A DNA stretch of 64,000 bases from Candidatus Dojkabacteria bacterium (GCA_035271645.1 DATERJ010000012.1:93551-157550), one strand, 5' to 3'; positions 27,201-52,184 are shown, numbered from the stretch's first letter. The notes: a model not told the origin generated them from the sequence alone. Program-made: numbers and translations.

Positions 27201-30200
27201 AAATATGGAAGCATTACAGTCTTAAAGAATGTTGATGGTAATGGAGATGGGGATTTAGATGATGAGGTTGATGTAAAAGGTTCAGACCAGTGGAATTGGA
27301 CAATTAATAGTGCTGATGCAGGTAAAACTGGAAGTACTCAGTCTAACTTAAAGACAGGTGAGTATATTATTAATGAAAAAGATGGTCCAGTAGGTTACTC
27401 TCTGGTTTCAGTAGAATGTACAGGTAGTGAAGGTATGAAAACAGATGCGGATGGTACAACTACAGTAAACCTAAAGTCAGGTGAAAATGTAACATGTACA
27501 TATACTAACGCAAGAGATACAGGCACATTGATTGTTGAGAAAATAGTTGTAGATGCTGATGGTGGAATTCTCCAAGCAAAAGACTTCTCATTTAAGGTTG
27601 ATATGATAAATGAGGATGAAAGTACTACAGAATATATTTCTCCTACTTACTTTACTCCAAATACAGAGAACCCTCTATCAGGTAAAAATACAATTACACT
27701 AGTTCCAACAGGTACCTACTCTATTACAGAAGTAGAGGCAAATCAGAGAGGATATACAACAACATATAGTGATAATTGTACTAATAATGTAAATATCCAA
27801 AAAGGGGACACAGTTACTTGTACTATTACTAATACGCCCAGTGCTCCAACATTGAAGATAGTTAAGGATGTTATTAATGATAATGGTGGTAATGCAACAA
27901 TATCAACCTTTGGTATTACATTAACAGATACACCATTAACATTTGGAGATGGAACACCTGTTAATGAGACTACTACTAGATATGAAGCTACTCCAACAGT
28001 TGTTGCTAATAAGACATATACCTTGTCAGAGTTAGATAAAACAAAAACAGGATATGAGCAAAAGAAACTTGAGTGTTTAGATACAGATACAAATACAAGA
28101 GTTGATAACAAAGGTGTATTTAGATTAAATCTTGGTCAAAACATAGAGTGTAAGATTGTAAATGATGATATCGTACCAGTATTAATTCTTGACAAGGAAG
28201 TCAATAACAAAGATCTTCCATGGTATTTAAGAAAATCAGCATCAGCTTGGACATTAACGGCTACTGGTCCTACTACATTAAGTGGTAAAGGTAGGAGTAA
28301 CTATGCAAATGATGTTCCGAGTGGAAAGAAATTCAAGGCTGGTACATATACTCTTTCAGAAACAAATATCCCAGGATTTAAATCAGTTAATGGTTGGGTT
28401 TGTAATGGTGTAGCTTTAGGAGAGGATAATAAGATAACTCTTGGGGTTGGAGATAGAGTTACTTGTAAGATTGTTAATGAAAGTGTTTACGGTAAGATAA
28501 TTGTCAAGAAGTTAGTTGAACCTAAAACAGATCCTACTTTGTTTACTTTTACAGGTGATGTGGCTGGAATAATTGGTCATAATGGAGAAATTTCAAAATA
28601 TGTAATTCCTGGAGAGTACTCTGTAACAGAAAAATCTAAAGATGGTTGGAATCTAAGAGATTTAACATGTACAGATCCTACAAATAACAGCTCTCAAGAT
28701 TCTACCAATAAGTATAAAGCAAACATCAATGTAGGAGATAATGAGACAGTCCGATGTACATTTACTAATGAAAAGTTAGGAATAATTTCTGGCTTCAAAT
28801 ATGAAGATAAAAATGGAAACGGAAAATGGGATGTTTTACCACTATTCTCAGAATTACCATTAAGAGGTTGGAGAATCTTCATTGATTTGAACAACGATGG
28901 TGTTCTAAATGTAGGAGAGCCATCTACCACAACAGATGTGTTTGGATCTTACACATTCACTAATCTACCAGTAGGAGGCACATATGTTGTTCGTGAAGTA
29001 CAGCAAGATGGTTGGACTCAAACAACTGCAGATCCTGCTCCTATCACAATTGCAGCAGGAGATGTGAGATTGTTGGTCAACTTTGGTAACTTCAAAGATG
29101 CTACAATCAATGTAACTAAAGATGTTGTTGGAATTGACGGTAAAGCAAATGTTGCAGACACACATGAATTTACTGCACTTTTAAACGATGAAACAGTTGG
29201 TAAGATAATTGCAGAAGGAACCACAGCTACATACAAAGTAGCAAATGGTGCACATACAATAACAGAAGCAGAAGATGAGGACTACACATCTCTGGGTTGT
29301 TTCATTGGTGATGAAGAGTTTACTAATTACTCGGTAAAGAGTGGTCAAACATACAATGTAGTATGTAAGAATGCACAACTACCAGCAACACTAATCGTTA
29401 GAAAGAATGTAGTCAACAGCGAAGGAAAGGATGAGGGTGTGTTCTCAGATGATCAGTTTGATATTGTCTTGGGTGAAGAAACACAACAGATTGCGGATAC
29501 TGCAAATGGTAAACAACCAGCAATATTTGAAGGATTACAGCCAGGTGTTCATACATTCACAGAAACACCAAAAGAAGGATATATCTTCGAAGGATGTACA
29601 GATGATGGTGAGGTTACATTAGGAAGTAATCAAACTCTTGAAGTTGTATGTACCAACAAAGTAATTGATCCAATCCTTAAGATTGAAAAGAGTAATGATG
29701 CAGTAAGTTCATTGTTAGCAGGTGATATGGTTACATACACAATTACAGTAACAGCACCTATTGATGATATAGAGGAAGGTACATATGTTCTAAATAATGT
29801 AGTAGTCTCAGACATTGCTCCAGCAGGATTCAAATATATCCTTGGCTCATGGACAGTAGAGAAAAACAGTGTTGATATTACAGATGAAGTTCCAGAACCA
29901 ACATACAATGATACAAATGTAGCACAGTGGATGATTGGAGATATGAAAGAAGGGGATGTTGTAGTACTAACATACAGAACTAGAATCTCTCTCTTACAAG
30001 ATCCTGGTAACTATCCAGACATTGCATGGGTAGCAGGTACATCACTAATAGATGGTGCAGTACTAGGTGCTTCTACAGTAGACCCACTAACACCATTTGT
30101 AGGGACAGATGTAACAGTCATAGAGCCTGATATTGTAGAAGAAGGAGAAGTATTAGGTGCTTCCATCACCCTGCCAGATACAGGTGCAAGCACATATCTA

Positions 30201-31193
30201 ACATTAGGTGCATTAATTATGATGATTCTAGGTGTAATTGCCCTACTCTTTAAACCATTCAAGAAGCTAAACTATGCTCTTCTTACTGGTCTAATGGCAG
30301 TATCATTTGTAACCCTACTTACTCCTAACAGAGTATTAGCAGAAGACAGTGATATTAAGGTAAGAATTATGCAACCAGCAACTCCAACAAACAAGAGTAG
30401 CTTTAATGTCGGATTTGTAGCATTAGACCTTAAGAACAATCCAATTACAGTAGAATGTTACAAAGATGCAGTCCTGTTTGAAACACTTCCAAATGTAAAT
30501 ACAGGTAATTGTCCAGCAAAAGTAGATGCAAGTGGTACATATACTTTCTATGTCATTGCAAAATCTACTTCAGGTGAGCAAAAATCAGCAGATGTAACAG
30601 TAGTGGTAGATTTAGAAAAACCATCACCCGTAATTGATTACTCAAAAGCAGGTAATGTATTAAAGTTCAAAACAGCAAATGATGGTAAAACAAAGAAGGT
30701 TGAAATCCATAGGTCTACAACACCAAAATATACTGCAAATGAAAGTACAAGAATTCATACCATGGATGTATTACCAAATACAGAATACTCATGGACAGAT
30801 ACAACAGCAGAAACAGGAAAAACATACTACTATGCTCTTAGAACAGTAGATGCAGTTGGAAACGTATCTACAATAGTATCAGACCCTGAGGTTAAGATTG
30901 TACCACCTACTACAACAGGTACAGGAACAACAGCTACTGTTACTACTCCAACAGAAGGTGAAGTAGCTGGTCAAACAGATACCAAGAAAGAAGGAGAAGT
31001 AGCAGGTGAAGCAGATGACCTTGTAGAGGGAGAAGAAAAAGATGTAGAGAAGAAAGAAGAAACAAAAGAGGATACAAAGGCTGATTTGAAAGAAACAGGA
31101 AAGAAGATTTTAAACAAATGGTACATCTGGGTTGTAGCAATCCTAGTACTTGGAGGAGTAGCATTCTATGTCAAAAAACAAAAGAGTAATTAA
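24258..31193 (+). CDS. Giant cell-surface adhesin/pilus-tip-like protein with an internal sortase signal and a membrane-anchored C-terminal module
   Basis: Signal peptide, then a vWA domain (MIDAS DTSGS at ~aa 240). About 10 Ig-like isopeptide (CnaB/SpaA) repeats carry E-box motifs (YTITETGLSGYE, YSVIETSLSGH, YTLSETNIPGF…), with SdrD-B-like Ca-binding inserts (DENGDEKYDEGE, DKNGNGKWD). LPDTG lies at aa 1972 (nt 30171-30185), followed by TM plus KPFKK. A further ~335 aa carries a signal-like segment, an FN3-like domain, a Thr-rich linker, an acidic tract and a TM plus KKQKSN. Confidence 0.8.
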   Translation: MKFNKKSFWKSLYKISTVLFLVGYNFAPVALAAEEISNLEPDSNQSVSVTTEDTSEDILDEGISNPEGIAKGENVKGEEAQKSVSLQDTVSKKENDSQTKIELKASPMGNSDFINITSVTVDNQSHTTVVRPGTVRVRVDATKNIPWGSTYYKLSNNKYACVVKSDTEGTTHEFDLDIGMDVGLGEYDLSITAYERSDCSTGWFWNPSYKSDTKVLAKAVKVQDAPNPLLGQTCGLDISLVLDTSGSIGSTKLQQMKEAFYLLIDSLKGTPTRFSLVEFNTKAYVRQDFTDDFDLVKTKIAQFQSSGRTNWYDALLKSESTFDPRLDKADLIVFASDGNPNEPSNALNKAIEQANLIKGDDIRILGIAIGMNVNLNNMKAITGPNLNTGDFRTSDVISADFDTLADQLGKFASDTCGGSISINKYIGSLGTKGGAGWEFTVTPSDPLLKLVTDENGQVNSGELSVGTYSVIETSLSGHNFVSASCKKGSGILVGQPTKNGVKNIPVNADDIITCDFINDLSCKAGQHTLEGQIKGNGYTTGQLCAGSGACWAEGDNVPARLTITGLEVGTSYSAIVSHDFENAYGKVGYVNFNNVHSGNNTATNITLSEPTIEGTGPTTKKYTITFTPTNSTVQLDWNALLSDEAGEWSGGSLHYRLEDGVCGGLGKREIPINPNQIQIKGSIKPIKSSENNINPTQWSFNISGLVNVNNVASGEKATGLPLGDKNADATYTITETGLSGYELVSVSEPCVLDDDGKVTVTLTKANPDVECTFVNKLMVGNIIVKKVTEPSGSTEVFTFTTTGTGYNGFTLTDATSNTQTLVPGTYTVSESLTELQKDSWYLKSSTCDSSIVGKSQSPSNLNLASGETVTCTFTNTQYGSISGHKWNDADGSDLTTDDRTGVKNWRIFIDENGDEKYDEGEKVLLTDENGFYKFEDLKPGTYVIVEDMNSLDGWYGLKEGISHTVYVGPGKDVEDVDFVNVKYGSITVLKNVDGNGDGDLDDEVDVKGSDQWNWTINSADAGKTGSTQSNLKTGEYIINEKDGPVGYSLVSVECTGSEGMKTDADGTTTVNLKSGENVTCTYTNARDTGTLIVEKIVVDADGGILQAKDFSFKVDMINEDESTTEYISPTYFTPNTENPLSGKNTITLVPTGTYSITEVEANQRGYTTTYSDNCTNNVNIQKGDTVTCTITNTPSAPTLKIVKDVINDNGGNATISTFGITLTDTPLTFGDGTPVNETTTRYEATPTVVANKTYTLSELDKTKTGYEQKKLECLDTDTNTRVDNKGVFRLNLGQNIECKIVNDDIVPVLILDKEVNNKDLPWYLRKSASAWTLTATGPTTLSGKGRSNYANDVPSGKKFKAGTYTLSETNIPGFKSVNGWVCNGVALGEDNKITLGVGDRVTCKIVNESVYGKIIVKKLVEPKTDPTLFTFTGDVAGIIGHNGEISKYVIPGEYSVTEKSKDGWNLRDLTCTDPTNNSSQDSTNKYKANINVGDNETVRCTFTNEKLGIISGFKYEDKNGNGKWDVLPLFSELPLRGWRIFIDLNNDGVLNVGEPSTTTDVFGSYTFTNLPVGGTYVVREVQQDGWTQTTADPAPITIAAGDVRLLVNFGNFKDATINVTKDVVGIDGKANVADTHEFTALLNDETVGKIIAEGTTATYKVANGAHTITEAEDEDYTSLGCFIGDEEFTNYSVKSGQTYNVVCKNAQLPATLIVRKNVVNSEGKDEGVFSDDQFDIVLGEETQQIADTANGKQPAIFEGLQPGVHTFTETPKEGYIFEGCTDDGEVTLGSNQTLEVVCTNKVIDPILKIEKSNDAVSSLLAGDMVTYTITVTAPIDDIEEGTYVLNNVVVSDIAPAGFKYILGSWTVEKNSVDITDEVPEPTYNDTNVAQWMIGDMKEGDVVVLTYRTRISLLQDPGNYPDIAWVAGTSLIDGAVLGASTVDPLTPFVGTDVTVIEPDIVEEGEVLGASITLPDTGASTYLTLGALIMMILGVIALLFKPFKKLNYALLTGLMAVSFVTLLTPNRVLAEDSDIKVRIMQPATPTNKSSFNVGFVALDLKNNPITVECYKDAVLFETLPNVNTGNCPAKVDASGTYTFYVIAKSTSGEQKSADVTVVVDLEKPSPVIDYSKAGNVLKFKTANDGKTKKVEIHRSTTPKYTANESTRIHTMDVLPNTEYSWTDTTAETGKTYYYALRTVDAVGNVSTIVSDPEVKIVPPTTTGTGTTATVTTPTEGEVAGQTDTKKEGEVAGEADDLVEGEEKDVEKKEETKEDTKADLKETGKKILNKWYIWVVAILVLGGVAFYVKKQKSN

Positions 31194-39870: not shown

Positions 39871-40707
39871 TTACCTAATTTTCTTCCGAAAAAACATTAA
39901 AACGAATATTCCTCCAAGTATAAGCGCACCAATTCCTATGTCCTTATAAAAGACATTAGGATTACCACTACCTCCCGAGGGGGGGATAATGATATCAGGA
40001 GTTGGTGTCATTGGAGGATCTGTAGGTTCCTCCGTAGGCACTTCAGTTGGCTCCTGTGTTGGAGCATTCGTTGGCGTTGCCGTCGGAGATTCCGTAGGCG
40101 TCGCTGTCGGAGATTCCGTAGGCGTCGCTGTTGGAGATTCCGTAGGTGTTGCCGTCGGAGATTCTGTAGGTGTTGCCGTTGGAGGTTCCGTAGGCGTCGC
40201 TGTCGGAGGTTCCGTAGGTGTTGCCGTTGGAGATTCTGTAGGTGTTGCTGTTGGAGATTCTGTAGGCGTCGCTGTTGGAGATTCCGTAGGTGTTGCTGTT
40301 GGAGCTTCCGTAGGCGTCGCTGTCGGACATATTTCTAAATAACTCACATGACTTAGGTCATGTCGGCACGGAGACAAAACAAAATGATATGGCATCTCCT
40401 CAGGTGGGTCTAGATATATCGGTCCTGGGCAGTCGTTACCAGCCTTCCAACAATATCCAGCAAGAAGACAACCATCTTGACTGGGATTGAACCAGTATTC
40501 ACAAGGTTCCGTTGGATTATCATCCTTAATCCAACCATTACCTTCAGGACATGTCTGTTGCCCTGGTTTAGTTGGAGTTGGGGATGAAATTGTATAGATA
40601 TTACCTAATTGCTCTTTTGCAGAGACATTTGTATCTGCAGATGTAAAGATGCTAAGAGAAAGTAGGATTACAAACAATACGATAGAAATTGAAATGAATT
40701 TTTTCAT
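39871..40707 (-). CDS. Secreted Pro/Thr-repeat surface protein with C-terminal TM anchor
   Basis: Signal peptide and a Cys-rich N-terminal domain. About 12 tandem PTATPTES octapeptide repeats, then …GALILGGIFVLMFFRKKIR. Confidence 0.6.
   Translation of the reverse strand: MKKFISISIVLFVILLSLSIFTSADTNVSAKEQLGNIYTISSPTPTKPGQQTCPEGNGWIKDDNPTEPCEYWFNPSQDGCLLAGYCWKAGNDCPGPIYLDPPEEMPYHFVLSPCRHDLSHVSYLEICPTATPTEAPTATPTESPTATPTESPTATPTESPTATPTEPPTATPTEPPTATPTESPTATPTESPTATPTESPTATPTESPTATPTNAPTQEPTEVPTEEPTDPPMTPTPDIIIPPSGGSGNPNVFYKDIGIGALILGGIFVLMFFRKKIR
40036..40330. repeat. 24-bp tandem repeat array (~12 units) encoding the PTATPTES repeats
   Basis: Unit gtcggagattccgtaggcgtcgct with wobble variants. 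It explains the antisense GVAVGDSV ORF at 39989..40342. Confidence 0.85.
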
Positions 40708-42092: not shown

Positions 42093-42797
42093 ATGGGTTG
42101 TGAAAACATTGAAAATCACAATTTAGGTAATGAGCCAAGAGATTTAGATGATATGAGAGGTGAATATGATGTAGCTATCATTGTTTTAAGTGGTCCTGAT
42201 GAAGATGAAAAGTTTAGGGAGTATGCAGCAACACTAGCTCATTTTGAAGCAGGGCTAATGGGTAAGAAAGCTGTTATCATTACTGCTGGTAGTCGTTCTC
42301 ATTTGATAAAAGACAGGCTTGTTAATGAAAGAGATATTCCTGAAGAGGATATAGTTGTTGAGAACCATTCCTATGATACTTCTAGCAATGCTATTTTTAC
42401 TAGTGAGATGTTAATGAGATTAGGATTTGAGGAGCAAGGGGATGTTCTGTTGATAACAAATGGATATCATTTACCTAGGTCAGAGATGTTGTTTAGAAGA
42501 TATTGGGGACCTAGTTTTAAGCCTATCAATGCTGAGAGGTTTCTTTATGAGAATCGTCCTGATAGTTATTCTTTACCAGGTGATACAGAGCCTTATCCAT
42601 ATGGTTTAGATGCAAAGAATCATGAGAATGAACCTAGAACCAGAATCCTTAAGTTTATAGATAGTGTTGTATTCAAAACTATTTATAAATATCCTGCAGG
42701 AGAGTTACTTATGAGAAGTTTAGCTAAAAATAGGTTGCAACAGAGAAAGAAATCACGTAGTCAAATTAATCAAGAAAACCTTCACTTTTCTTCTTAA
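42093..42797 (+). CDS. DUF218 (YdcF/ElyC/SanA-like) protein
   Basis: LLITNGYHLPRSEMLF matches the DUF218 signature. The track ATG lies inside the GCTATGGGTTG motif; the true start may be the ATG at 42153 (MRGEYDV…). Confidence 0.55.
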   Translation: MGCENIENHNLGNEPRDLDDMRGEYDVAIIVLSGPDEDEKFREYAATLAHFEAGLMGKKAVIITAGSRSHLIKDRLVNERDIPEEDIVVENHSYDTSSNAIFTSEMLMRLGFEEQGDVLLITNGYHLPRSEMLFRRYWGPSFKPINAERFLYENRPDSYSLPGDTEPYPYGLDAKNHENEPRTRILKFIDSVVFKTIYKYPAGELLMRSLAKNRLQQRKKSRSQINQENLHFSS

Positions 42798-43886
42798 ATC
42801 CTCTTCACAATTCTTTTTAATTTCATCAAATGTTTGATTTGGAGAAGCTACTTCATATATATCTTGTATTAGATATTCTTTCTTTAACTTACCATCATCT
42901 AATTCATTCCTACCAGCAAAGATAACTAAAGGTATATTTCTTTTAACAGTTCTTTTTGCAATACCACTAATTGTTTTACCCATCATAGATTGTTTATCAA
43001 ACTTCCCCTCCCCTGTTATCACTAAATCAGCATTTTTTAGGGCATTATCAAAATCACAGATATCCAAGATTAGGTCTATACCATGTACAATTTCTGCATT
43101 AAGAAAGAATGAACATGATGCACCTATACCACCAGCAGCACCTCCTCCTTCTATTGTTGATAAATCAACACCAAATTGTTCTTTTACAATTTTTGAGAAG
43201 TGTTGTAGTCCTTCATCAAGAAGTACAACTTCACTATCACTTGCACCTTTTTGTTTGGCATATATGTATGCTGCACCGTTCTTTCCATAGAGGGGATTAA
43301 GGACATCACAGAGGAGAGTAAATTCAACATCTTTTATTCTTTCATCTAGTAAGGTTTTATCAATCCTTACAATATCTTTTAATGTAGATCCTACTGGTAT
43401 GAATTCTTTGTTCTCTTTATCTAAAAACTTAACACCTAAAGCTGATAATAGACCTGTACCTGCATCATTTGTAGCACTTCCACCTAATGCAATGTATATT
43501 TTCTTTACACCTGAAGATATTGCATGGTCAATCTGTTCTCCCATACCTAAGCTAGTTGTATACATTGGGTTTTTAGACTTTGCAAAGAGTAATCCTGCAC
43601 ATTGTCCTGCTTCTATAACCGCAGAGTTATTAAACTTTACATATTTAAAATTTTTCTTAGTAAAATTTGGGGAGGTAAAGGTATCTTCTACATACTCTCC
43701 ATTGAGGTTTTCATGGAAGGTATCTATTGTCCCTTCTCCTCCATCTGCTACTGAGAATCGAATAGTTTCTATATTAGGTATCCCTTTCTCTATCTCTTCC
43801 TGAATAATCCTACCTGCTGTAAGGGAGGTCATTGTTCCTTTGAATGAGTCAGGAGCTATTACAATCTTTATCCTTTTCTTTTCCAT
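42753..43886 (-). CDS. Glycerate kinase
   Basis: KIVIAPDSFKGTMTS N-terminal motif; 377 aa. Confidence 0.8.
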   Translation of the reverse strand: MEKKRIKIVIAPDSFKGTMTSLTAGRIIQEEIEKGIPNIETIRFSVADGGEGTIDTFHENLNGEYVEDTFTSPNFTKKNFKYVKFNNSAVIEAGQCAGLLFAKSKNPMYTTSLGMGEQIDHAISSGVKKIYIALGGSATNDAGTGLLSALGVKFLDKENKEFIPVGSTLKDIVRIDKTLLDERIKDVEFTLLCDVLNPLYGKNGAAYIYAKQKGASDSEVVLLDEGLQHFSKIVKEQFGVDLSTIEGGGAAGGIGASCSFFLNAEIVHGIDLILDICDFDNALKNADLVITGEGKFDKQSMMGKTISGIAKRTVKRNIPLVIFAGRNELDDGKLKKEYLIQDIYEVASPNQTFDEIKKNCEEDLRRKVKVFLINLTT

Positions 43887-45103
43887 AGTTCTCTTTCAAA
43901 TACATTTTGTCCTAAATTTTTTGATTTTTTAGACCAATATCTAGGTAGTTGTTTGTAATCAAATGCATTGATTTTATCAATATATTGATTTACTAAATCT
44001 TCTTCTTTTTGGCTACATCTTTTTGAGAATTCTACTAGTTCTGTATATGTGGCGTTTTGTGAGGCGAGTTTTCTGTCTTCTTCTATGAATTCTTTTTCTA
44101 GTGTTCTTGCTTTTTGCATCCATTCACCTATATCTATGTTGTTTGTATATATTAATCTGTTTAGTTTTTCTCTTTTTAACCAGTATTGGAGACTTTCTTG
44201 CTCGTTTGTAAAGCATGGTGGTACTACAAAGTCTCCTGTGGGGTTGAAGTAGAGAGGTTTGAAGATTGAGAGACATGGTGTTGAACTTCCTGTTATCCAT
44301 ACTGTTATACTTTTGTCATTTACGATTGATACCATACTACCTGTTGAGTGGTCTGTTAGTATTCCTGCATGCATACATATGCTAGTAGATGTTCCATTTT
44401 TGATTGCTTTTTCTTGTGTGGTTGTATGTAGTCTTAGAATATTGAAGTATTGTTCTAAGTTATGTTCTTCTATCTTCTTTATATTCTCTGTACCCATATC
44501 CATTCTACTTTTAGATCCTGAGAAGAATGTTACTATTGGTTCTGTGTGTTTTTGTGCGAAGTTATCTAATGATAGTCTGTTAGAGATGTTTGCACATTGT
44601 TCTACTTTTTTGAGTTGGTATTCTTTTCCTGCTGTTTCTAGTATGTATGCTTCTTCTTTGTCTGCAATTATATATGAGTTGTCATAGTAGAATTCATTAT
44701 CAAAGCCACAGTTTCCACCTTGTCCGTATTCTAGTAGTAGTCTAATTATTTCTTCTGATGCTTGTTTAGCTGTTTTAGTTCTTTCAAGAGCTAGTCTTAT
44801 GAAGTCCATACCTATTAGGGATGGTGTTTTTTTGTTTTTAGATTTTGTAAATACTGCTTCATTCCCTATACTTACTCCATATTCGTTTATTCCCATTTCG
44901 GCTCCCCATATCCATGATGGTTTTACAAGTAATACAGCACAGTGTTCTTTGGGATCAGGTATGGATATGTATGTACATTGTACTTCTCCTCTAGCATTAC
45001 CTGATGGAAAGAAGAGTACTAGATTGGGTTCATTTACAGATCTATCACTGTTTTTAAGGAGTACAGAGTATTGGTTTTGTTTCGTCCATAGTGTATCACA
45101 CAT
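43868..45103 (-). CDS. Ntn-hydrolase peptidase, C69 (dipeptidase)-like
   Basis: MCDT… N-terminal nucleophile Cys directly after Met, and LLKNSDRSVNE; 411 aa. Confidence 0.5.
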   Translation of the reverse strand: MCDTLWTKQNQYSVLLKNSDRSVNEPNLVLFFPSGNARGEVQCTYISIPDPKEHCAVLLVKPSWIWGAEMGINEYGVSIGNEAVFTKSKNKKTPSLIGMDFIRLALERTKTAKQASEEIIRLLLEYGQGGNCGFDNEFYYDNSYIIADKEEAYILETAGKEYQLKKVEQCANISNRLSLDNFAQKHTEPIVTFFSGSKSRMDMGTENIKKIEEHNLEQYFNILRLHTTTQEKAIKNGTSTSICMHAGILTDHSTGSMVSIVNDKSITVWITGSSTPCLSIFKPLYFNPTGDFVVPPCFTNEQESLQYWLKREKLNRLIYTNNIDIGEWMQKARTLEKEFIEEDRKLASQNATYTELVEFSKRCSQKEEDLVNQYIDKINAFDYKQLPRYWSKKSKNLGQNVFERELWKRKG

Positions 45104-45192
45104 ATGTTATTTAAAGATATCATATGGGGGTGGAGGGTGTAAATGATAAAAAGACATTTCTAAAAATATTTGTTAAAATCATGTTGATTTAA

Positions 45193-46134
45193 TTGTTAAG
45201 AAATGTGTTAATGATAGATTTCTCAAAAACACTTCAGTCTTTTTTAAAACAAGCTAATACTTCAGATTTGAAGACTAGTTTGTATCCTAAAGTTTACAAT
45301 GACTTAACAGTAAAAGTCTCTTTTGGACAAGGATCTTCGGCTAGAATTCCTTGGATTGCTTTTCTTACTGATGGAATCCAGGTTAGCAATGGTTTTTATC
45401 CTGTTTATCTCTATTACAAAGAATACAATACACTTATTCTTTCTTATGGTATAAGCGAAACTAATGAATTTAGTTCTACATGGCCACCTGAAGTAATTGG
45501 ACTAGCTCCAACGATTTTTGATTTTTTTAGTCATAAAGTAGCTCGATATGGAAGTTCATATGTTTACAAAGCGTATAATGTTGAAATTACTAATAACGAG
45601 GTTTTCTTGTTAGATACACATGATGGAAAGAAAAAAAATAGTGATGAGATAAATAATGATTTGCTAACTATTTTAAATAAATATAAAAAAGTGTTTGATG
45701 AGGGTGAGCATACTGAAACAGTAGAAAATATAGGTATAGGACTCTTTTACATGGAAAAACAACTCGAGGACTTCCTTATTCAGAATTGGGATAATACAGA
45801 GTTTGGAGAGAAATATGAATTGATCATAGAGGAAGGTGAGATTGTTAGTCAACAATACAGAACAGATGTCGGGCCAATAGATATACTTGCTAAAGATAAG
45901 GTTAACGGTAATTATGTAGTAATAGAATTGAAAAAAGATCAAACCAATGATAACACCATTGGGCAACTAACTCGATATATGGGTTGGGTAAAAGAAAAAT
46001 TAGGGGATAACAATGTTAAAGGTATTATTATCTCAGGAGGATATAATAAGCAACTAGATTATTCTGCAAAGATGGTACCTAATGTTGAGGTATATTCTTA
46101 TAAAATAGATTTTAGAGTTAAGAAGGAGAATTAA
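45193..46134 (+). CDS. Modification-dependent (type IV-like) restriction endonuclease candidate: McrB-N/DUF3578-like reader fused to a NucS/DUF91-like PD-(D/E)xK nuclease
   Basis: N-terminal half has VSFGQGSSARIPWIAF (PWI motif). C-terminal half has GPIDILAKD…YVVIELKKD (D…E-x-K nuclease core). Confidence 0.5.
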   Translation: MLRNVLMIDFSKTLQSFLKQANTSDLKTSLYPKVYNDLTVKVSFGQGSSARIPWIAFLTDGIQVSNGFYPVYLYYKEYNTLILSYGISETNEFSSTWPPEVIGLAPTIFDFFSHKVARYGSSYVYKAYNVEITNNEVFLLDTHDGKKKNSDEINNDLLTILNKYKKVFDEGEHTETVENIGIGLFYMEKQLEDFLIQNWDNTEFGEKYELIIEEGEIVSQQYRTDVGPIDILAKDKVNGNYVVIELKKDQTNDNTIGQLTRYMGWVKEKLGDNNVKGIIISGGYNKQLDYSAKMVPNVEVYSYKIDFRVKKEN

Positions 46135-46148
46135 TTCTTCAAACTCCC

Positions 46149-47585
46149 CTACTGCAACCTCTCAAATTTACCATCTTCTAATTGTCTATAATATCCTGAT
46201 CCCTCTGGTCCATATAGACTCCATGAGTTAATAGGAACTTGATATGCTTGACCTGTACTTGGTGAAGATAATGTCTCATATCCTCTCATACCCTCTACCC
46301 ATTTCTCACTAGATTCAGTTATTAAACCTTTATGATAAGCACTACTTTGAACAGTAATAGAAGCTCTTGTATTCTCAGTAGGTTCAACTATTGGTAGTAA
46401 TGTATTCTTCCTTATCATACTACTATCAACAAAATCAAAACTATCTTGCATCTTCTGTAAGGTATCTTTTACATTATCCCAATTCTCAGCTAATGTCATC
46501 TGTCCAAATCCATAAGCTGATGCATATTTAGTCTCACCTGCAGAGTATGGAGGCTGATATATTCCTACAGTTATTTTACCTAGAATAGGTATACCTTGCA
46601 TCTTAGCACTAAGGTTAAACTCCTGTACACTATACCCTAATACCTGAGAAGGTAATACTGTTTCATCTGTTAATGTAAGATCTGTTATTTCCTTAACCTC
46701 TGCGAACGTCTCTTCTACCCAAAATTTAGGTGTATAGTCACCTTTTAATTCTGTTGTGTACATGTAGCTAAGTAATGTTCTTTGATCAGGTCCTACTAAT
46801 TGAATAAAACCTTCTTTCTCTTCTGAGATGGTGTAACCGGTAGCCTTATCTAACTGGAAGTATTTTCCTTTGTATTTCTTAAAACCTTCTGGAGTCTCTT
46901 CCTTTACTTCTTCTTTGGGTTTTGCTGTTAAAATTTCATCTGTAAGTACTTTTGTTCTTGCAAAACACCCAGTAATTTCCTTTAAGAAACCTTCTCTCTC
47001 TTCAAATATCTCTGCAGGTGCCCAATATGCTTTAAATGTAACAAAATCTTTTGTTTTAGAAATATGCATCTTCCCCTTAATATCATATTCGTTGATTTGA
47101 GCTATGACATCTGCATAAATCTCGTCCTCTAACTCTTCTATCTCTTGAATCTCCTGCATCTCAAATGTCCCACCTCCTTCTTCAGTAGTTTCTTTTAAGA
47201 TTTTAGAGAATGTATTTAGGAAATCCTCTTTTGTTAATTCTGGCTGTAATTTAGCAGTATATATGAGTACTGCAGTAGTATTTGTCTCATCTTCCATTAT
47301 TGAGACAGTACCGCTTTCAACCGCATAATACCATCCATTTGGAACACCAATACTAAAGGCGTTCTCAGGATACTCTATCCTCTTCAACGAACAACTAGGG
47401 TTGTCGTTTTCTACAGTCTCAGCATAATACTCATCCCTACCAATACCTAAGTCCTTTAGAATTGTTTCTAAAGATCCTGTTAGGTAGAGAGCACCTAAGA
47501 GTGCAACTACGAGGATTATTATGATTGAAATAATTATAGATTTCTTGTGTTTTGTAAAGAAATCTGTAGACTGGGCTTCTTTCAT
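46149..47585 (-). CDS. Hypothetical N-terminally anchored extracytoplasmic protein
   Basis: TM helix at aa 18-40, then a 430-aa acidic domain with no known motif. Confidence 0.35.
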   Translation of the reverse strand: MKEAQSTDFFTKHKKSIIISIIIILVVALLGALYLTGSLETILKDLGIGRDEYYAETVENDNPSCSLKRIEYPENAFSIGVPNGWYYAVESGTVSIMEDETNTTAVLIYTAKLQPELTKEDFLNTFSKILKETTEEGGGTFEMQEIQEIEELEDEIYADVIAQINEYDIKGKMHISKTKDFVTFKAYWAPAEIFEEREGFLKEITGCFARTKVLTDEILTAKPKEEVKEETPEGFKKYKGKYFQLDKATGYTISEEKEGFIQLVGPDQRTLLSYMYTTELKGDYTPKFWVEETFAEVKEITDLTLTDETVLPSQVLGYSVQEFNLSAKMQGIPILGKITVGIYQPPYSAGETKYASAYGFGQMTLAENWDNVKDTLQKMQDSFDFVDSSMIRKNTLLPIVEPTENTRASITVQSSAYHKGLITESSEKWVEGMRGYETLSSPSTGQAYQVPINSWSLYGPEGSGYYRQLEDGKFERLQ

Positions 47586-47694
47586 ATTATTTAAATATAA
47601 AAAATTAAGTCCTTAGATAAATAATAGCAGATATGTGAGTGGTGTCAAATAGATTGCATAGGTTACAAATATATGAATTCTAAAGCCATACAGT

Positions 47695-49347
47695 TTATCC
47701 CTTAGCCACTAAAACAAATCTTTCTATTGTATCTCTACTCATATTCAATGATTTGGGAAGTTGTTCCTCTATTCTATCAACCCACCTACCTTCTAGAAGA
47801 TGTATGTTCTTAATTTCACTTACACTCTCCCCAACACTCATATACAGTTCATCTAAAGTATCCTTACCCTCTTTAGCAGAATGTAAGATTGTATCTTGCA
47901 TAGACTTGCTAACAGAATACTTACCAAAATCTCCAACAAATATATTTGAAAAATATTCTTTTAGGTATGAGGTAGTTATAGAGGTAGTAGGAAATATACC
48001 ATCTTTATTTCTTATCCCATTCAATACCACTTTAGGTTTAACAACCCTATCAAACCCTGCAGAGAGTCTAAGATAATCCAAAGTATTACTATCAGCACCT
48101 GTTGTTTTTAAATATTCCAACACCTCATCAACCTTGCTCTCAAATGAAAGTAGTTCACCTAAGTTACTGTTGCTATCTCTCACTTGTGAGTACTTAAAAA
48201 TATCACTAATCTTTTTAATAATATTATTAGGAATATTACTGTCTCCTACAATCTCTACTATATCATCATCTGATAGGATCCTATCAACATCTTCAGTTGT
48301 ATACTCCTTCTTAACCTCATACTCTAGATTGTAATCATTCTTAAGAAGATACTTTATCTCATTGTACAAAACTACTCCTAATATCGGTTCATCTTTAGTA
48401 AATTCTCCAATCCACATTCTAAGATTTCGCCCTATCCTGTTCTGCTCTTTTGTACTTTTTGTACCCATTCTCTCTTTAAGAGCATTAGCCATCTCTCTAG
48501 CTATCTCTGTATGTACTAACTTCTCAGGCTCATATTGGCCTGGAAAAGTAATGACTTCATTGGTTGATAGTACAAATTTGTATTGTAATGGCTTCTTATC
48601 TCCATCACGACTTTTTTGTTCCACTTCTATTTTGTAGAATGAGGAAGTTAATGATTTATCCTCAAGAAGTAATTTTAAAGCCAGAACACTATCAAATCCA
48701 TGTTTTTCAACAGAATGACCATCGTATGATATTCTTTCTGGATTATCTAAATATATCTGGAAGTACTCTTGTATCTTTGACATATCACCTTTCACATTGG
48801 ATAGGTTAAAACCATACTCTAATTTATTAGAACGGTATACTGGTATTTCTAATCCATTCTTGTCTAAGACAGCAGTACCATCTTCATATCTATATATCTT
48901 CTTCCTTTTTCCATTTGGTCCATTCTCATATTGTAAATATCTAGCTTCTTCCTCATTACTATTTATATGCGAAAGGTCTGGTTTGAGTATTCCGTATGAT
49001 AAATCTCTTCTTCTTACAAATATCATATCTCCATTAAATTTTATACCTTTTGTATGTCTTAAGTATTCTTCTGTAACGATAGTAATACCTTTAGATCTGT
49101 ATACATGAGTATTTACAAAAGCATTACTAACCTCATTACTATCTATACCTTCAATTCTGTTAATATCTAAATTCTTAGTTTCGTATGTCTGAACTCCAAT
49201 TACTAAAGGAAAAGGAAGGTTCTCCTTTATCAGTCGATTGAACTGATCAACTTCTACAGAATTAGAACCAGGTGTTATTAATGATACTGGGGTTGTATCT
49301 AGTTCTGTTTCTTCAGTTTGTAATGTTGGATCATCATCTATACCCAT
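47695..49347 (-). CDS. Hypothetical 550-aa protein (orphan)
   Basis: Long ORF with ordinary coding composition and no recognisable motif. The GCTATGGGTTG promoter module lies ~50 nt upstream. Confidence 0.35.
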   Translation of the reverse strand: MGIDDDPTLQTEETELDTTPVSLITPGSNSVEVDQFNRLIKENLPFPLVIGVQTYETKNLDINRIEGIDSNEVSNAFVNTHVYRSKGITIVTEEYLRHTKGIKFNGDMIFVRRRDLSYGILKPDLSHINSNEEEARYLQYENGPNGKRKKIYRYEDGTAVLDKNGLEIPVYRSNKLEYGFNLSNVKGDMSKIQEYFQIYLDNPERISYDGHSVEKHGFDSVLALKLLLEDKSLTSSFYKIEVEQKSRDGDKKPLQYKFVLSTNEVITFPGQYEPEKLVHTEIAREMANALKERMGTKSTKEQNRIGRNLRMWIGEFTKDEPILGVVLYNEIKYLLKNDYNLEYEVKKEYTTEDVDRILSDDDIVEIVGDSNIPNNIIKKISDIFKYSQVRDSNSNLGELLSFESKVDEVLEYLKTTGADSNTLDYLRLSAGFDRVVKPKVVLNGIRNKDGIFPTTSITTSYLKEYFSNIFVGDFGKYSVSKSMQDTILHSAKEGKDTLDELYMSVGESVSEIKNIHLLEGRWVDRIEEQLPKSLNMSRDTIERFVLVAKG

Positions 49348-49866
49348 ATTTCATATTAACAAAATTAGATGGATATTAGTAGGTAGAAATGATATAATGC
49401 TATGGGTTGAGATCGTTGAAAATGGAGGTGTAGTATTACAAAAAAGATAGTTATTTGGATTGTTGGGAATCAGTACATTGGGGCAAAAGATACATCTGGG
49501 TTAATTTATATTAATTTAACTCAAAATGATTTAATAATTCCCCAATCTGGACATATTGCATATGTTCTTGAAAAGAAGATCATCGGACTTCCTCCGAGGG
49601 TGGATAATGTTCGTTTTGTTGTAGATAACTTTGTTCTTCTTATGTCAGGAAGAAAAGATTTGGTATCTATTGATACTGTAGAACAATTACTATCAAACTC
49701 AACCTAATTGGTAGGTATCTTATATTTTTAACAAGAAGATGCCTACCTTTTCTTTATTCCACCTAGATAGCATATTGATTTACAAAAAAAAGGAGCACCT
49801 CCGGTATAATCACTCAAATGAGTAGATATTGTTTTACCATCAACGGTGCTCGTCTTGCATTAATAG

Positions 49867-50247
49867 TTATTCTGGTGCAATGGTTGCATCCACTTCCTCG
49901 TTTAGTATTTGTACTAATTCGGTTATGGGGTCTATGTGTAGATGAGAGCCAACTGGAAGTGGTTTAACTTCATGGGTTTCACCATACTTCTGAACAATTG
50001 CATTTAGCCAAGTTTCAAAGTTCTCCTTGGTTACTCCCTCTGCTGAAATATCTGCCAACCAAGGCATTTGTTCCAAAAGAAATGGTTGGCACTCTTTAGA
50101 TGCTCTTGGTAATTGGTGGGTAAATAGGTTGTCATTTGTCATAAAGTTGAGTATTGCATAAACACCCTCCATATGACTAGGGGCCAGTAGATATCCAGTG
50201 GTGACTGACAAAATATCCCCAATGTGAAAAGCTTTAGATTTAGACAT
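49867..50247 (-). CDS. Hypothetical 126-aa protein (orphan)
   Basis: Preceded by duplicated promoter/leader module copy A. Confidence 0.35.
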   Translation of the reverse strand: MSKSKAFHIGDILSVTTGYLLAPSHMEGVYAILNFMTNDNLFTHQLPRASKECQPFLLEQMPWLADISAEGVTKENFETWLNAIVQKYGETHEVKPLPVGSHLHIDPITELVQILNEEVDATIAPE

Positions 50248-50284
50248 ATTTTTATTCTCCTTGTTTCTTTGTTGTTTTTAACAT

Positions 50285-50585
50285 ATCCGAATGGATAGCT
50301 TATTAACTATTAGATTAGTAATAAGTAATAGGCTACCCACTCAAGATTAAAAAAGAGAGAACCCCAATAAACTATTAAAGTGCAAGTATTTATATTATAT
50401 CATAAAATGAAGAGAAATGCTATGGGTTGTGAGTTGGTTGACATAATTATGAACTTAGAACTGTAAGAGATTTTTTATCTTGAAAATGTGCTTAAGGAAA
50501 GAATGTTGTTTTATAAAGAAGAAAAGCCTGAAGGTTTATGAGATAGATGGATAGTATACACTACACGGGAATCCCTACTTCAGGC
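50285..50585. repeat. ~300-bp promoter/leader/3'-hairpin module, copy A
   Basis: Shares with copy B ATCCGAATGGATAGC…GCTACCCACTC (a hairpin-forming leader), TTAAAGTGCAAGT, the ATTATATCATAAAA -10, CTATGGGTTG and a near-identical 165-nt tail ending in the AGCCTGAAG…CTTCAGGCT stem. Confidence 0.8.
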
Positions 50586-50603
50586 TATTCTTGCACTTAT
50601 TTA

Positions 50604-51215
50604 TTAATCAAATGTGGAAGTTACCTCCAAGACATACTTTTTGTCAGCATTTTTTACGATTGCTGCTGTAGTTAGTGCTCCCCCTCCTATTGCAAGGATA
50701 ACTAATAAGATTATTAGGAATCCTGCAGCAGAGTCCTTACTACTACGTCTTTTATTACTTTTACTACCCCCTAAGAAGAAATCTGTAACACTTTGAAATG
50801 CTCCAGGTGTATGTTTAGCTGCAGACCATATATTTCGTGCCTGAGCGTAAGTATTCCAGCCAGCTACAGCAATATCTCCAAATTGTCTTTTTTTCCAAGC
50901 ATTAATAATAGAGTGAACCCAAATCACAGTTCCACTTGTAAGTAATGCAGGGATTAAAATGAGATATCCTAGGTTGAACATCACCGAGGCTTGATCGGGA
51001 GTTAAATATTCTAATGCTGTAGCACCAATTGTCAGAATAGTCAGATATACCCAAGTAAATCCAACTGCTGACATAACAACACTGGCCCAAACAAGAACTC
51101 TTGGCCAGCCTTTGATAATCTTTACTTCGGTCCAAAATCGACCAGCACTCCAAGCATTCCACCACGAAATGCCGAAGTTCAACAACAGACATAACAACAA
51201 AATTAATGGGTTCAT
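50604..51215 (-). CDS. Hypothetical 5-TM membrane protein (Trp-rich)
   Basis: 203 aa with hydrophobic helices. It is flanked on both sides by the duplicated module. Confidence 0.4.
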   Translation of the reverse strand: MNPLILLLCLLLNFGISWWNAWSAGRFWTEVKIIKGWPRVLVWASVVMSAVGFTWVYLTILTIGATALEYLTPDQASVMFNLGYLILIPALLTSGTVIWVHSIINAWKKRQFGDIAVAGWNTYAQARNIWSAAKHTPGAFQSVTDFFLGGSKSNKRRSSKDSAAGFLIILLVILAIGGGALTTAAIVKNADKKYVLEVTSTFD

Positions 51216-51262
51216 TATTTATTCTTCTCCTTTACATGGTAATTTACTGCAATTTGCAGGCA

Positions 51263-51569
51263 ATCCGAATGGATAGCTTCTGAGGTATTAGGAGATTACT
51301 TAATACCGTAGAAGCTACCCACTCTTTTTGAGAGTAAAATGAGAAGTAACCTTCCATCGATTGTTAAAGTGCAAGTGGTTACATTATATCATAAAACGAG
51401 AAACAACACTATAGGTTGTAGGTCAATTGGTTGACATAATTATGAACTTGGAACGGTCAGAGATTTTTTTATCTTGAAAATGTGCTTAAGGAAAGAATGT
51501 TGTTTTATAAAGAAGAAAAGCCTGAAGGTTTATGAGATAGATGGGTAGTATACACTACACGGGAATCCC
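51263..51569. repeat. ~300-bp promoter/leader/3'-hairpin module, copy B
   Basis: See copy A. The distal 165 nt are ~97% identical, and the leader hairpin keeps its base-pairing through compensatory substitutions. Confidence 0.8.
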
Positions 51570-51601
51570 TACTTCAGGCTCTGTCTTTAACAAACTGATA
51601 T

Positions 51602-52030
51602 TTACTCTTTCCTGTGGCTAATATGGCCATAGATACGATATGGATAACCATTTCCGCGGTTGACACCAGCAATTATATGAACCAATTGAAGAGCAGGATT
51701 GTTATAATACCTTCTCAAATAATCTTCATATAATGCAGGGGTTCCTTCTGGGAAATTCTTACTTGCTTCCTGAAAAGACTCTTGAGATTTCTTGTAATCC
51801 CATTCATACAGTTGGTCAGAATAAACGTAATTGACACCAACCACAATATCGCTCCCGAATGAGGAAATCAATTCATTGCCAGGGGCTAGAAAGATGGTTT
51901 GCTCGTTGTTGTGAAAGCGACCGTCTGAGTAATGGGGATTCAAGAGATTCCAAGTTATAGGCGTGTTTTTATCTGTTTCAACATGAATAATTTGTCGAGT
52001 CATTTTCTTTTCCTTTCTAGTTGAGAACAA
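51602..52030 (-). CDS. Hypothetical 142-aa protein (orphan)
   Basis: Located immediately downstream (on the minus strand) of tRNA-His and the GCTATGGGTTG/TATAAT module. Confidence 0.35.
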   Translation of the reverse strand: MFSTRKEKKMTRQIIHVETDKNTPITWNLLNPHYSDGRFHNNEQTIFLAPGNELISSFGSDIVVGVNYVYSDQLYEWDYKKSQESFQEASKNFPEGTPALYEDYLRRYYNNPALQLVHIIAGVNRGNGYPYRIYGHISHRKE

Positions 52031-52106
52031 ACGGATCGAGTAAACTTTTTAGTTGTTAAATAACTCTATAATTATATCAAAGAACAGGGGAAATTGCTAT
52101 GGGTTG

Positions 52107-52184
52107 TGGGGTGGAAGATGGGACTTGAACCCACAACCTCTGGTGCCACAAACCAGCGCTCTAACCAGTTGAGCTACATCCACC
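52107..52184 (-). tRNA. tRNA-His (anticodon GTG), G-1 and CCA encoded
   Basis: Reverse complement G-GTGGATGTAGCTCAACTGGTTAGAGCGCTGGTTTGTGGCACCAGAGGTTGTGGGTTCAAGTCCCATCTTCCACC-C-CCA. The extra 5' G pairs with C73, as is typical of tRNA-His. Confidence 0.85.

Follow-up and report, generated by a model that had tools for sequence, protein, structure and literature searches.

A Dojkabacteria gene predicted to join a McrB-type methylated-cytosine reader to a NucS-type nuclease

The fusion gene and its two domains

We analysed a 64,000-nt stretch of DNA from a Candidatus Dojkabacteria bacterium (GCA_035271645.1 DATERJ010000012.1:93551-157550; hereafter the window), in which a plus-strand open reading frame (ORF) at 45193..46134 encodes, as judged from its sequence, a fusion of a methylated-cytosine reader domain of the Escherichia coli McrB type with a DNA-cutting domain of the NucS type. 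The ORF comprises 313 aa when counted from a TTG codon, and an ATG at 45211 gives a protein of 307 aa. We took the start at 45211 because the 307-aa form is an exact match to NCBI HKM19992.1, an 'endonuclease NucS domain-containing protein' from a metagenome-assembled genome (MAG) of Candidatus Dojkabacteria (WS6; candidate phyla radiation, CPR), and because its length and N-terminus agree with those of close homologues, which are 303-319 aa long and all start at the equivalent Met. The ATG is thus probably the true start, and the TTG at 45193 an over-extension that would add 6 aa. The features of the gene, numbered on the 307-aa form, are the following.

45211..46134, plus strand: coding sequence of the McrB-N/NucS_C fusion, 307 aa (ORF list, identity to HKM19992.1, homologue starts)
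45211..45699, plus strand: predicted N-terminal McrB-N (DUF3578/ADAM) modified-cytosine reader, aa 1-163 (Pfam, NCBIfam, PDB, Foldseek)
45328-30, plus strand: codon of the predicted wedge residue Q40, equivalent of McrB Y41
45352..45549, plus strand: codons of the predicted flipped-base pocket, W48 (45352-54), Y63 (45397-99), L67 (45409-11) and Y113 (45547-49)
45700..45750, plus strand: flexible interdomain linker, aa 164-180 (AlphaFold2 predicted local distance difference test score, pLDDT, <50; family alignment least conserved here)
45751..46131, plus strand: predicted C-terminal NucS/RecB-type PD-ExK nuclease module, aa 181-307, including the invariant helix FYMEKQLEDF..NW (Pfam, PDB 2VLD, Foldseek, PADLOC)
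45880..45978, plus strand: codons of the predicted catalytic core, D224 (45880-82), E239 (45925-27), K241 (45931-33), Q252 (45964-66) and Y256 (45976-78)
45151..45179, plus strand: candidate sigma-70-type promoter AAGACA-17-TAAAAT with TG upstream, in the divergent intergenic region (consensus scan)

The consensus scan found no more sites than expected from shuffled sequence, and the promoter is therefore only a candidate. The gene has a GC content of 31.0%; large ORFs elsewhere in the window have 35.1 +/- 2.6%.

Both domain assignments had been proposed in a first-pass annotation made from the sequence alone, and both hold under curated hidden Markov models, matches to solved structures and fold comparison, with MrcB_N (formerly DUF3578) and NucS_C each scoring above its Pfam gathering threshold. 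The domain sizes needed correction, as the reader had been given ~200 aa and occupies ~165 aa, while the nuclease had been given ~110 aa and occupies ~130 aa, following a 17-aa low-confidence linker. An AlphaFold2 model built with 27 family sequences reached a pLDDT of 79.6, with residues 164-180 disordered.

In the N-terminal half, Pfam MrcB_N matched aa 14-85 (2.9e-10, 40.5 bits, cut-off 25), the DNA-binding domain of EcoKMcrB (PDB 3SSC) matched at 1.9e-23, and Foldseek aligned the domain to McrB-N with template-modelling (TM) scores of 0.81-0.83 (target-normalised), 34% identity and an E-value of ~3e-10. The motif VSFGQGSSARIPWIAF, singled out in the first-pass annotation, lies at aa 42-57 in the 313-aa numbering. 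A family profile aligned E. coli McrB at 2e-33, with Tyr117 falling on an invariant RYG motif, and gave W48, Y63, L67, Y113 and Q40 as the equivalents of McrB W49, Y64, L68, Y117 and Y41. In EcoKMcrB-N, Ser38 and Trp49 clamp phosphates, Tyr41 intercalates, and the methyl group is contacted by Tyr64 and Leu68; Tyr41 was reported as non-conserved, with Gln in homologues (Sukackaite 2012, PMC3424535). Conservation was counted over 121 family members for the residues with which EcoKMcrB-N clamps phosphates and holds or discriminates 5-methylcytosine (5mC): all members keep the equivalents of McrB S38, L68, T85 and Y117, with those of W49, S60 and Y64 kept in 120, 119 and 113 members, respectively. 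The wedge position (McrB Y41) is Met in 111 members and Gln in the remaining 10, a group that includes the Dojkabacteria protein. The kinship with modified-base readers on which the first-pass annotation depended is thus upheld, the N-domain being a close relative of the only 5mC-flipping McrB-N domain with a characterised structure, with the pocket residues kept. Pfam, the 3SSC match, the fold and the pocket all identify it as a predicted domain for recognising a modified base.

The protein is not McrB proper. The NCBIfam McrB equivalog matched at 9e-25 over profile positions 8-172 of 459 only, scoring 87.3 bits where the cut-off is 637; the chain ends after the nuclease domain, with no AAA+ GTPase, and McrC is absent.

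In the C-terminal half, Pfam NucS_C matched aa 209-283 (1.7e-14, 54.3 bits, cut-off 24), Pyrococcus abyssi NucS (PDB 2VLD) matched at 1e-5, with NucS alignments confined to chain residues 140-210, and Foldseek superposed the domain on NucS/EndoMS, the root-mean-square deviation being 3.3 over 119 columns. YhcG_C also matched the nuclease part at 1e-6, under its Pfam cut-off. The two halves of the core described in the first-pass annotation, GPIDILAKD and YVVIELKKD, are both there, but they are separated by five residues (KVNGN) rather than eight. P. abyssi NucS D160, E174, K176, Q187 and Y191 correspond to D224, E239, K241, Q252 and Y256, and these residues, including the QxxxY motif, are invariant together with E182 in 121/121 relatives, confirming the conservation of the catalytic Asp, Glu and Lys. 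The reader and a nuclease domain whose active site is intact are thus predicted to share one polypeptide. Averaged over alignment columns, identity across bacterial and archaeal taxa is 67% for the whole protein, and the conserved residues in both halves indicate that both are under purifying selection as functional units.

Orthology to EndoMS/NucS, which would have pointed to mismatch repair, is excluded. The N-domain of NucS is absent, its place being taken by McrB-N, and only NucS_C matches; the NCBIfam NucS equivalogs NF003270 and NF002876 aligned to the catalytic domain only and scored 54.7 against a cut-off of 216 and 38 against 252. Clamp-binding motifs have the form Q-x-x-[LIM]-x-x-[FY][FY] or are of the QLxLF type, and by inspection no sliding-clamp (PCNA or beta) motif occurs in the C-terminus ...MVPNVEVYSYKIDFRVKKEN (...YKIDFRVKKEN). 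Matches to Shedu (SduA_C, 0.088), Cas4 (0.07), YraN/UPF0102 and HSDR_N_2 were non-significant and arise because the PD-(D/E)XK fold is shared.

The nuclease module also occurs outside this fusion. The PADLOC model PDLC04824, which represents the candidate defence system PDC-S02, matched aa 165-311, the module plus the preceding helix, at 7.8e-44 over profile positions 161-307 of 308; PADLOC lists the module as a defence candidate. An exhaustive search with aa 165-307 as the query returned 2,808 clusters at 50% identity, 1,183 of them with E <= 1e-10, and in nearly all cases the module was at the C-terminus, the proteins being 165-500 aa long. Among 94 diverse proteins carrying it, the Asp, Glu and Lys were the sole invariant columns. 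The N-terminal partners that Pfam recognised among these 94 longer carriers were MrcB_N (4), DUF7669 (3), Mrr_N (2), EVE (2), DUF4357 (1), an OGG-like domain (1) and some helix-turn-helix domains, most N-domains being unannotated, and at one further locus (L074) a DUF3427-like N-domain, slightly under its Pfam cut-off, sits on the same module. Mrr_N, EVE, DUF3427 and McrB-N are reader domains of type IV enzymes (PMC3874153, PMC7641849, PMC6765204). Such swapping of one module among N-domains is typical of type IV enzymes, and the module appears from these comparisons to be a shared effector.

Distribution, neighbourhood and recent exchange

A word-indexed search gave 2,157 matches, the best 120 of which share architecture and length at 53-66% identity; by this sequence-based count the fusion is neither rare nor unique, belonging to a family of >2,000 proteins. 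Species-representative genomes contain 56 full-length copies at 47-63% identity (L001-L056), all 56 from MAGs or single-cell genomes and 0 from cultured isolates, and many of these genomes are streamlined. The carriers include CPR bacteria (Saccharibacteria, Parcubacteria groups, Peribacteria and Levyibacteriota), DPANN and other archaea (Woesearchaeota, Micrarchaeota, Aenigmatarchaeota, Bathyarchaeia, Nitrososphaerales and Thermoplasmata), and SAR11, SAR86, SAR324, Prochlorococcus, Marinimicrobia, Bacteroidota and Chloroflexota. This patchy spread over Bacteria and Archaea at high identity argues for horizontal transfer. One identical marine protein occurs in several contexts, three of them adjoining a tyrosine recombinase, and 19 contigs carry the Dojkabacteria ORF in intact, identical form. 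An origin from phages or plasmids was rejected, since the full fusion was unmatched in 50,697 phage records, 72,556 plasmids and IMG/VR; the nuclease module alone was found in 27 of the plasmids and in one IMG/VR viral contig.

Comparison with L095, a Logan contig from another Dojkabacteria lineage that matches the window at only 73-76% identity in its syntenic flanks, delimited two nested segments.

42761..47654, strand not assigned: 4.9-kb segment (glycerate kinase, 411-aa AAT/C69-like gene, fusion gene, 478-aa orphan), 94.7% identical to L095 952..5846
44901..46460, strand not assigned: 1,560-bp tract, the fusion gene plus ~300 bp on each side, 100% identical to L095

The remainder of the 4.9-kb segment contains 254 differences from L095, and its next-longest identical run is 119 bp. 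This pattern suggests a nested, recent horizontal exchange centred on the fusion gene, while the 1,560-bp identity may possibly stem from an assembly chimera in the Logan contig. Further along, window 47655..52104 (550-aa, DUF7736, 203-aa and 142-aa ORFs) is replaced in L095 5847..7993 by unrelated genes, among them those for a polysaccharide deacetylase and an acetyltransferase, and the genes past tRNA-His likewise differ, so that the tRNA-His-proximal stretch looks, on sequence comparison, like a variable hotspot, with no integrase in sight. Within it, a ~220-bp direct repeat of 90% identity (50375..50592 and 51364..51587) flanks the 203-aa ORF (50604..51215) and is also present in three further contigs (L096-L098).

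The fusion gene lies between the divergent 411-aa AAT/C69-like gene and the convergent 478-aa orphan (46149..47585, minus strand), a predicted membrane protein, whose ORF ends 14 bp from it and has a hydrophobic N-terminal segment and no family match. Beyond this orphan follow the 550-aa orphan, the DUF7736 protein, two small orphans (203 aa and 142 aa) and tRNA-His. The first-pass annotation correctly placed the gene at the border of a block of ORFs that lack family matches and extend to tRNA-His (52107..52183); its description of the gene as the only one on the plus strand is true for ~42.8-52.3 kb, but that strand also carries a DUF218 gene at 42093..42797. A tblastn search of 80 related loci found no homologue of the window neighbours, including the 478-aa ORF, which travels with the fusion gene within Dojkabacteria only.

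PADLOC models gave no methyltransferase, McrC, McrB or restriction match in the other 53 ORFs of the window, and Pfam gave no methyltransferase in the nine nearest ORFs. We then took a census of the two nearest ORFs on each side of the fusion gene at ~50 related loci (150 proteins, Pfam and PADLOC), in which no recurrent partner gene and no McrC-type match was found; the commonest families were DUF2075/Schlafen-type helicases (4) and MazG-like proteins (3), followed by integrases (2) and a methyltransferase (1), the rest being housekeeping. The defence-island setting for which the first-pass annotation had looked to neighbourhood comparison did not emerge, as related loci are flanked mostly by housekeeping genes. 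In 7 of the 56 full-length loci, in both Bacteria and Archaea, a pair of genes encoding a MazG-like protein and a DUF2075/Schlafen-type helicase adjoins the fusion gene, in four of them immediately upstream on the same strand in an operon-like arrangement; the pair is not present in the window.

L001 6092..7985, L002 6081..7984, L055 6048..7969 and L010 1768..4094 (also in L006, L011 and L024): MazG-like and helicase gene pair

Taken together, the absence of McrC, of a GTPase, of a nearby methyltransferase and of any conserved neighbour, combined with horizontal spread, fits a stand-alone type IV enzyme.

Other features of the window were recorded in passing. Among the other 53 ORFs, three matched PADLOC pVip (viperin-like radical SAM) models, the lowest value being 1.3e-14, and one ORF of the window matched PDC-S07; these ORFs probably encode radical-SAM enzymes with housekeeping roles. 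On the minus strand, 39871..40707 encodes a secreted or anchored protein of 278 aa with a long, near-perfect run of TPTESPTA / TPTEPPTA repeats, and the local GC content is raised to 0.42; a giant ORF of 2,311 aa occupies 24258..31193 on the plus strand.

Proposed function and comparison with known systems

The domain identities, residue conservation, two-domain architecture, lack of partner genes and horizontal spread described above agree with the reading of the first-pass annotation, a type IV reader-nuclease fusion, as far as in silico evidence goes. The product is probably a stand-alone, single-chain, nucleotide-independent, modification-dependent restriction endonuclease of type IV or a type IIM-like kind. 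We infer its substrate, cleavage geometry, oligomeric state and role in defence along the following lines. The McrB-N domain would bind duplex DNA on the minor-groove side and push a wedge residue into the helix (Gln40 here, Met in most relatives), with a modified cytosine flipped into the pocket of Trp48, Tyr63, Leu67 and Tyr113, where Tyr63 and Leu67 would sense the methyl group. The flipped base would be 5mC and probably also 5-hydroxymethylcytosine (5hmC) or N4-methylcytosine (4mC), as for E. coli McrB. A flexible linker of ~17 residues would tether the NucS/RecB-type PD-ExK nuclease (Glu182, Asp224, Glu239, Lys241, Gln252 and Tyr256), which may cut nearby DNA with Mg2+, both strands being cut through a probable dimer or higher oligomer. 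In the Dojkabacteria host, the enzyme would serve in defence against phage or mobile DNA bearing methylated cytosines, and the host's own DNA would have to be free of the mark.

The comparison with EcoKMcrBC is instructive for the mechanism. The reader is homologous, the pocket and phosphate-clamp residues are kept, and the predicted targets are the same, 5mC, 5hmC and 4mC, preferably after a purine. In contrast to EcoKMcrBC, the fusion has neither the AAA+ GTPase nor McrC, and its wedge is Gln or Met where EcoKMcrBC has Tyr41. Because the GTPase motor and McrC are absent and the nuclease is fused in cis, recognition would be coupled to cleavage by the fusion itself, as in MspJI, McaZI, TagI and VcaM4I, and a mechanism of translocation and two-site collision is not expected. 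With NucS/EndoMS (2VLD, 5GKE) the protein shares a homologous C-terminal PD-ExK domain in which all active-site residues align; unlike NucS/EndoMS, it lacks the N-terminal dimerisation and mismatch domain and the clamp motif, and its distribution is accessory and patchy.

By layout, the nearest characterised analogues appear to be the McaZI group and the MspJI family. The McaZI group (DUF3427 plus PD-(D/E)XK, ~336 aa) and YenY4I resemble the fusion in size, in having an N-terminal modified-cytosine reader and a C-terminal nuclease in a single NTPase-free chain and in an occasional association with DUF2075 helicases, whereas the reader is DUF3427 rather than McrB-N and the nuclease DUF3883 rather than NucS_C. 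Enzymes of the McaZI group bind 5mC and 5hmC, restrict the 5hmC phage T4gt, are toxic to Dcm+ cells and are often encoded near DUF2075 genes (Lutz 2019, PMC6765204). MspJI, AspBHI and LpnPI (type IIM) likewise combine a base-flipping 5mC reader with a PD-(D/E)XK nuclease and cut at a distance without nucleoside triphosphate (NTP), but their reader is SRA-like and their nuclease belongs to another PD-(D/E)XK branch; the whole-chain Foldseek match to MspJI was weak (E 1.4e-3, TM 0.27). PDC-S02 resembles the fusion in the nuclease module and preceding helix that match PDLC04824, but the match is limited to the C-terminal half of the model's 308 positions, the PADLOC family has another N-domain, and PDC-S02 is itself a candidate system only.

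Several points weigh against a stand-alone restriction enzyme. The flanks are mostly housekeeping genes, not classic defence islands. At the wedge position the protein does not have the Tyr41 of McrB, and in E. coli McrB the substitution Y41Q lowered DNA binding (PMC3424535). NucS-type domains natively act on mismatched or branched DNA, which makes cleavage of plain duplex an assumption, and a host free of the mark is presupposed. Neither biochemical nor genetic tests of any McrB-N/NucS_C member turned up in the literature searched. One PDC-S02 representative of unspecified architecture gave no protection against T4, T5 and T7 in E. coli B (10.1101/2024.09.26.614923); this assay is a weak one for a 5mC-dependent enzyme because those phages carry no plain 5mC.

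Alternative explanations and significance

Three other explanations are each less likely than a stand-alone enzyme, namely dependence of the effector on a helper, a function in repair or strand discrimination, and DNA binding without nuclease activity. The first holds that the protein has little or no activity by itself and acts together with the DUF2075 (Schlafen-like) helicase and the MazG-like protein, in which case the copy in the window would be orphaned or partly functional. Besides the gene pair at 7/56 loci, four of them with it immediately upstream on the same strand, this explanation can draw on the DUF3427-PD-(D/E)XK fusions, which were little active in vitro, often lie beside DUF2075 genes and were proposed to act jointly with their products (Lutz 2019, PMC6765204). 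However, 49 of the 56 loci, the window among them, are without the pair, the protein is equally conserved with or without it, and the DUF3427 fusions restricted T4gt in vivo with no helicase added (Lutz 2019, PMC6765204), so that dependence on a helper seems improbable.

The second explanation, a nuclease for repair or strand discrimination, is more improbable still. The protein would be an EndoMS-like mismatch enzyme whose DNA-binding head differs, or would resemble MutH in being a methyl-directed nickase, or would act at deaminated 5mC in the manner of Vsr. The absence of the N-domain through which NucS dimerises and binds mismatches speaks against it, as do the NucS equivalog scores far under their cut-offs, the absence of a clamp-binding tail and flanks without linked methyltransferase or MutS/MutL genes, even though the nuclease domain is homologous to that of the mismatch-repair enzyme NucS/EndoMS and many neighbours are housekeeping genes, such as dnaG-rpoD in SAR11. 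DNA bending and base flipping by McrB-N do resemble those of glycosylases (PMC3874153), yet the methyl-sensing pocket residues are kept, and the family shows patchy cross-domain spread at 50-60% identity and a recent tract exchange. The third, an inactive DNA binder or decayed remnant that would act as a methyl-DNA-binding regulator or as a toxin by binding alone, deserves very little credence: related DUF3427-PD-(D/E)XK proteins do bind modified DNA and barely cleave it in vitro (PMC6765204), and one PDC-S02 member gave no phage protection (10.1101/2024.09.26.614923), but the full catalytic set is invariant in the 121 relatives and the 94 distant module carriers, for which reason an inactive domain is not expected, and the ORF is intact and identical across its 19 contigs.

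Returning to the stand-alone restriction enzyme, the combination of McrB-N with NucS_C is new, while the reader-nuclease principle is known and public databases already annotate both domains, which makes the gain an incremental and not a conceptual one. If the proposed function is correct, the protein would offer a small, 307-aa, NTP-independent reagent with the well-understood McrB-N reader and a nuclease in cis, which might be used to map or deplete DNA containing 5mC or 5hmC in the manner of MspJI and AbaSI, and the family would constitute a natural experiment on a McrB reader operating without its GTPase motor. A bolder extension, which we regard as doubtful, is that this GTP-independent methylcytosine restriction enzyme is one of the main obstacles that methylated foreign DNA meets in uncultivated, streamlined microbes (CPR, DPANN, SAR11, SAR86 and Prochlorococcus), crossing between Bacteria and Archaea and sweeping through populations, as the fully identical 1,560-bp tract would suggest, and that in a subset of them it acts as a hitherto undescribed three-gene system with the DUF2075 helicase and the MazG-like protein. 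On the proposed function itself, the fusion would be a likely defence gene for CPR, DPANN, SAR11 and Prochlorococcus, organisms with small genomes and few recognised defence systems.

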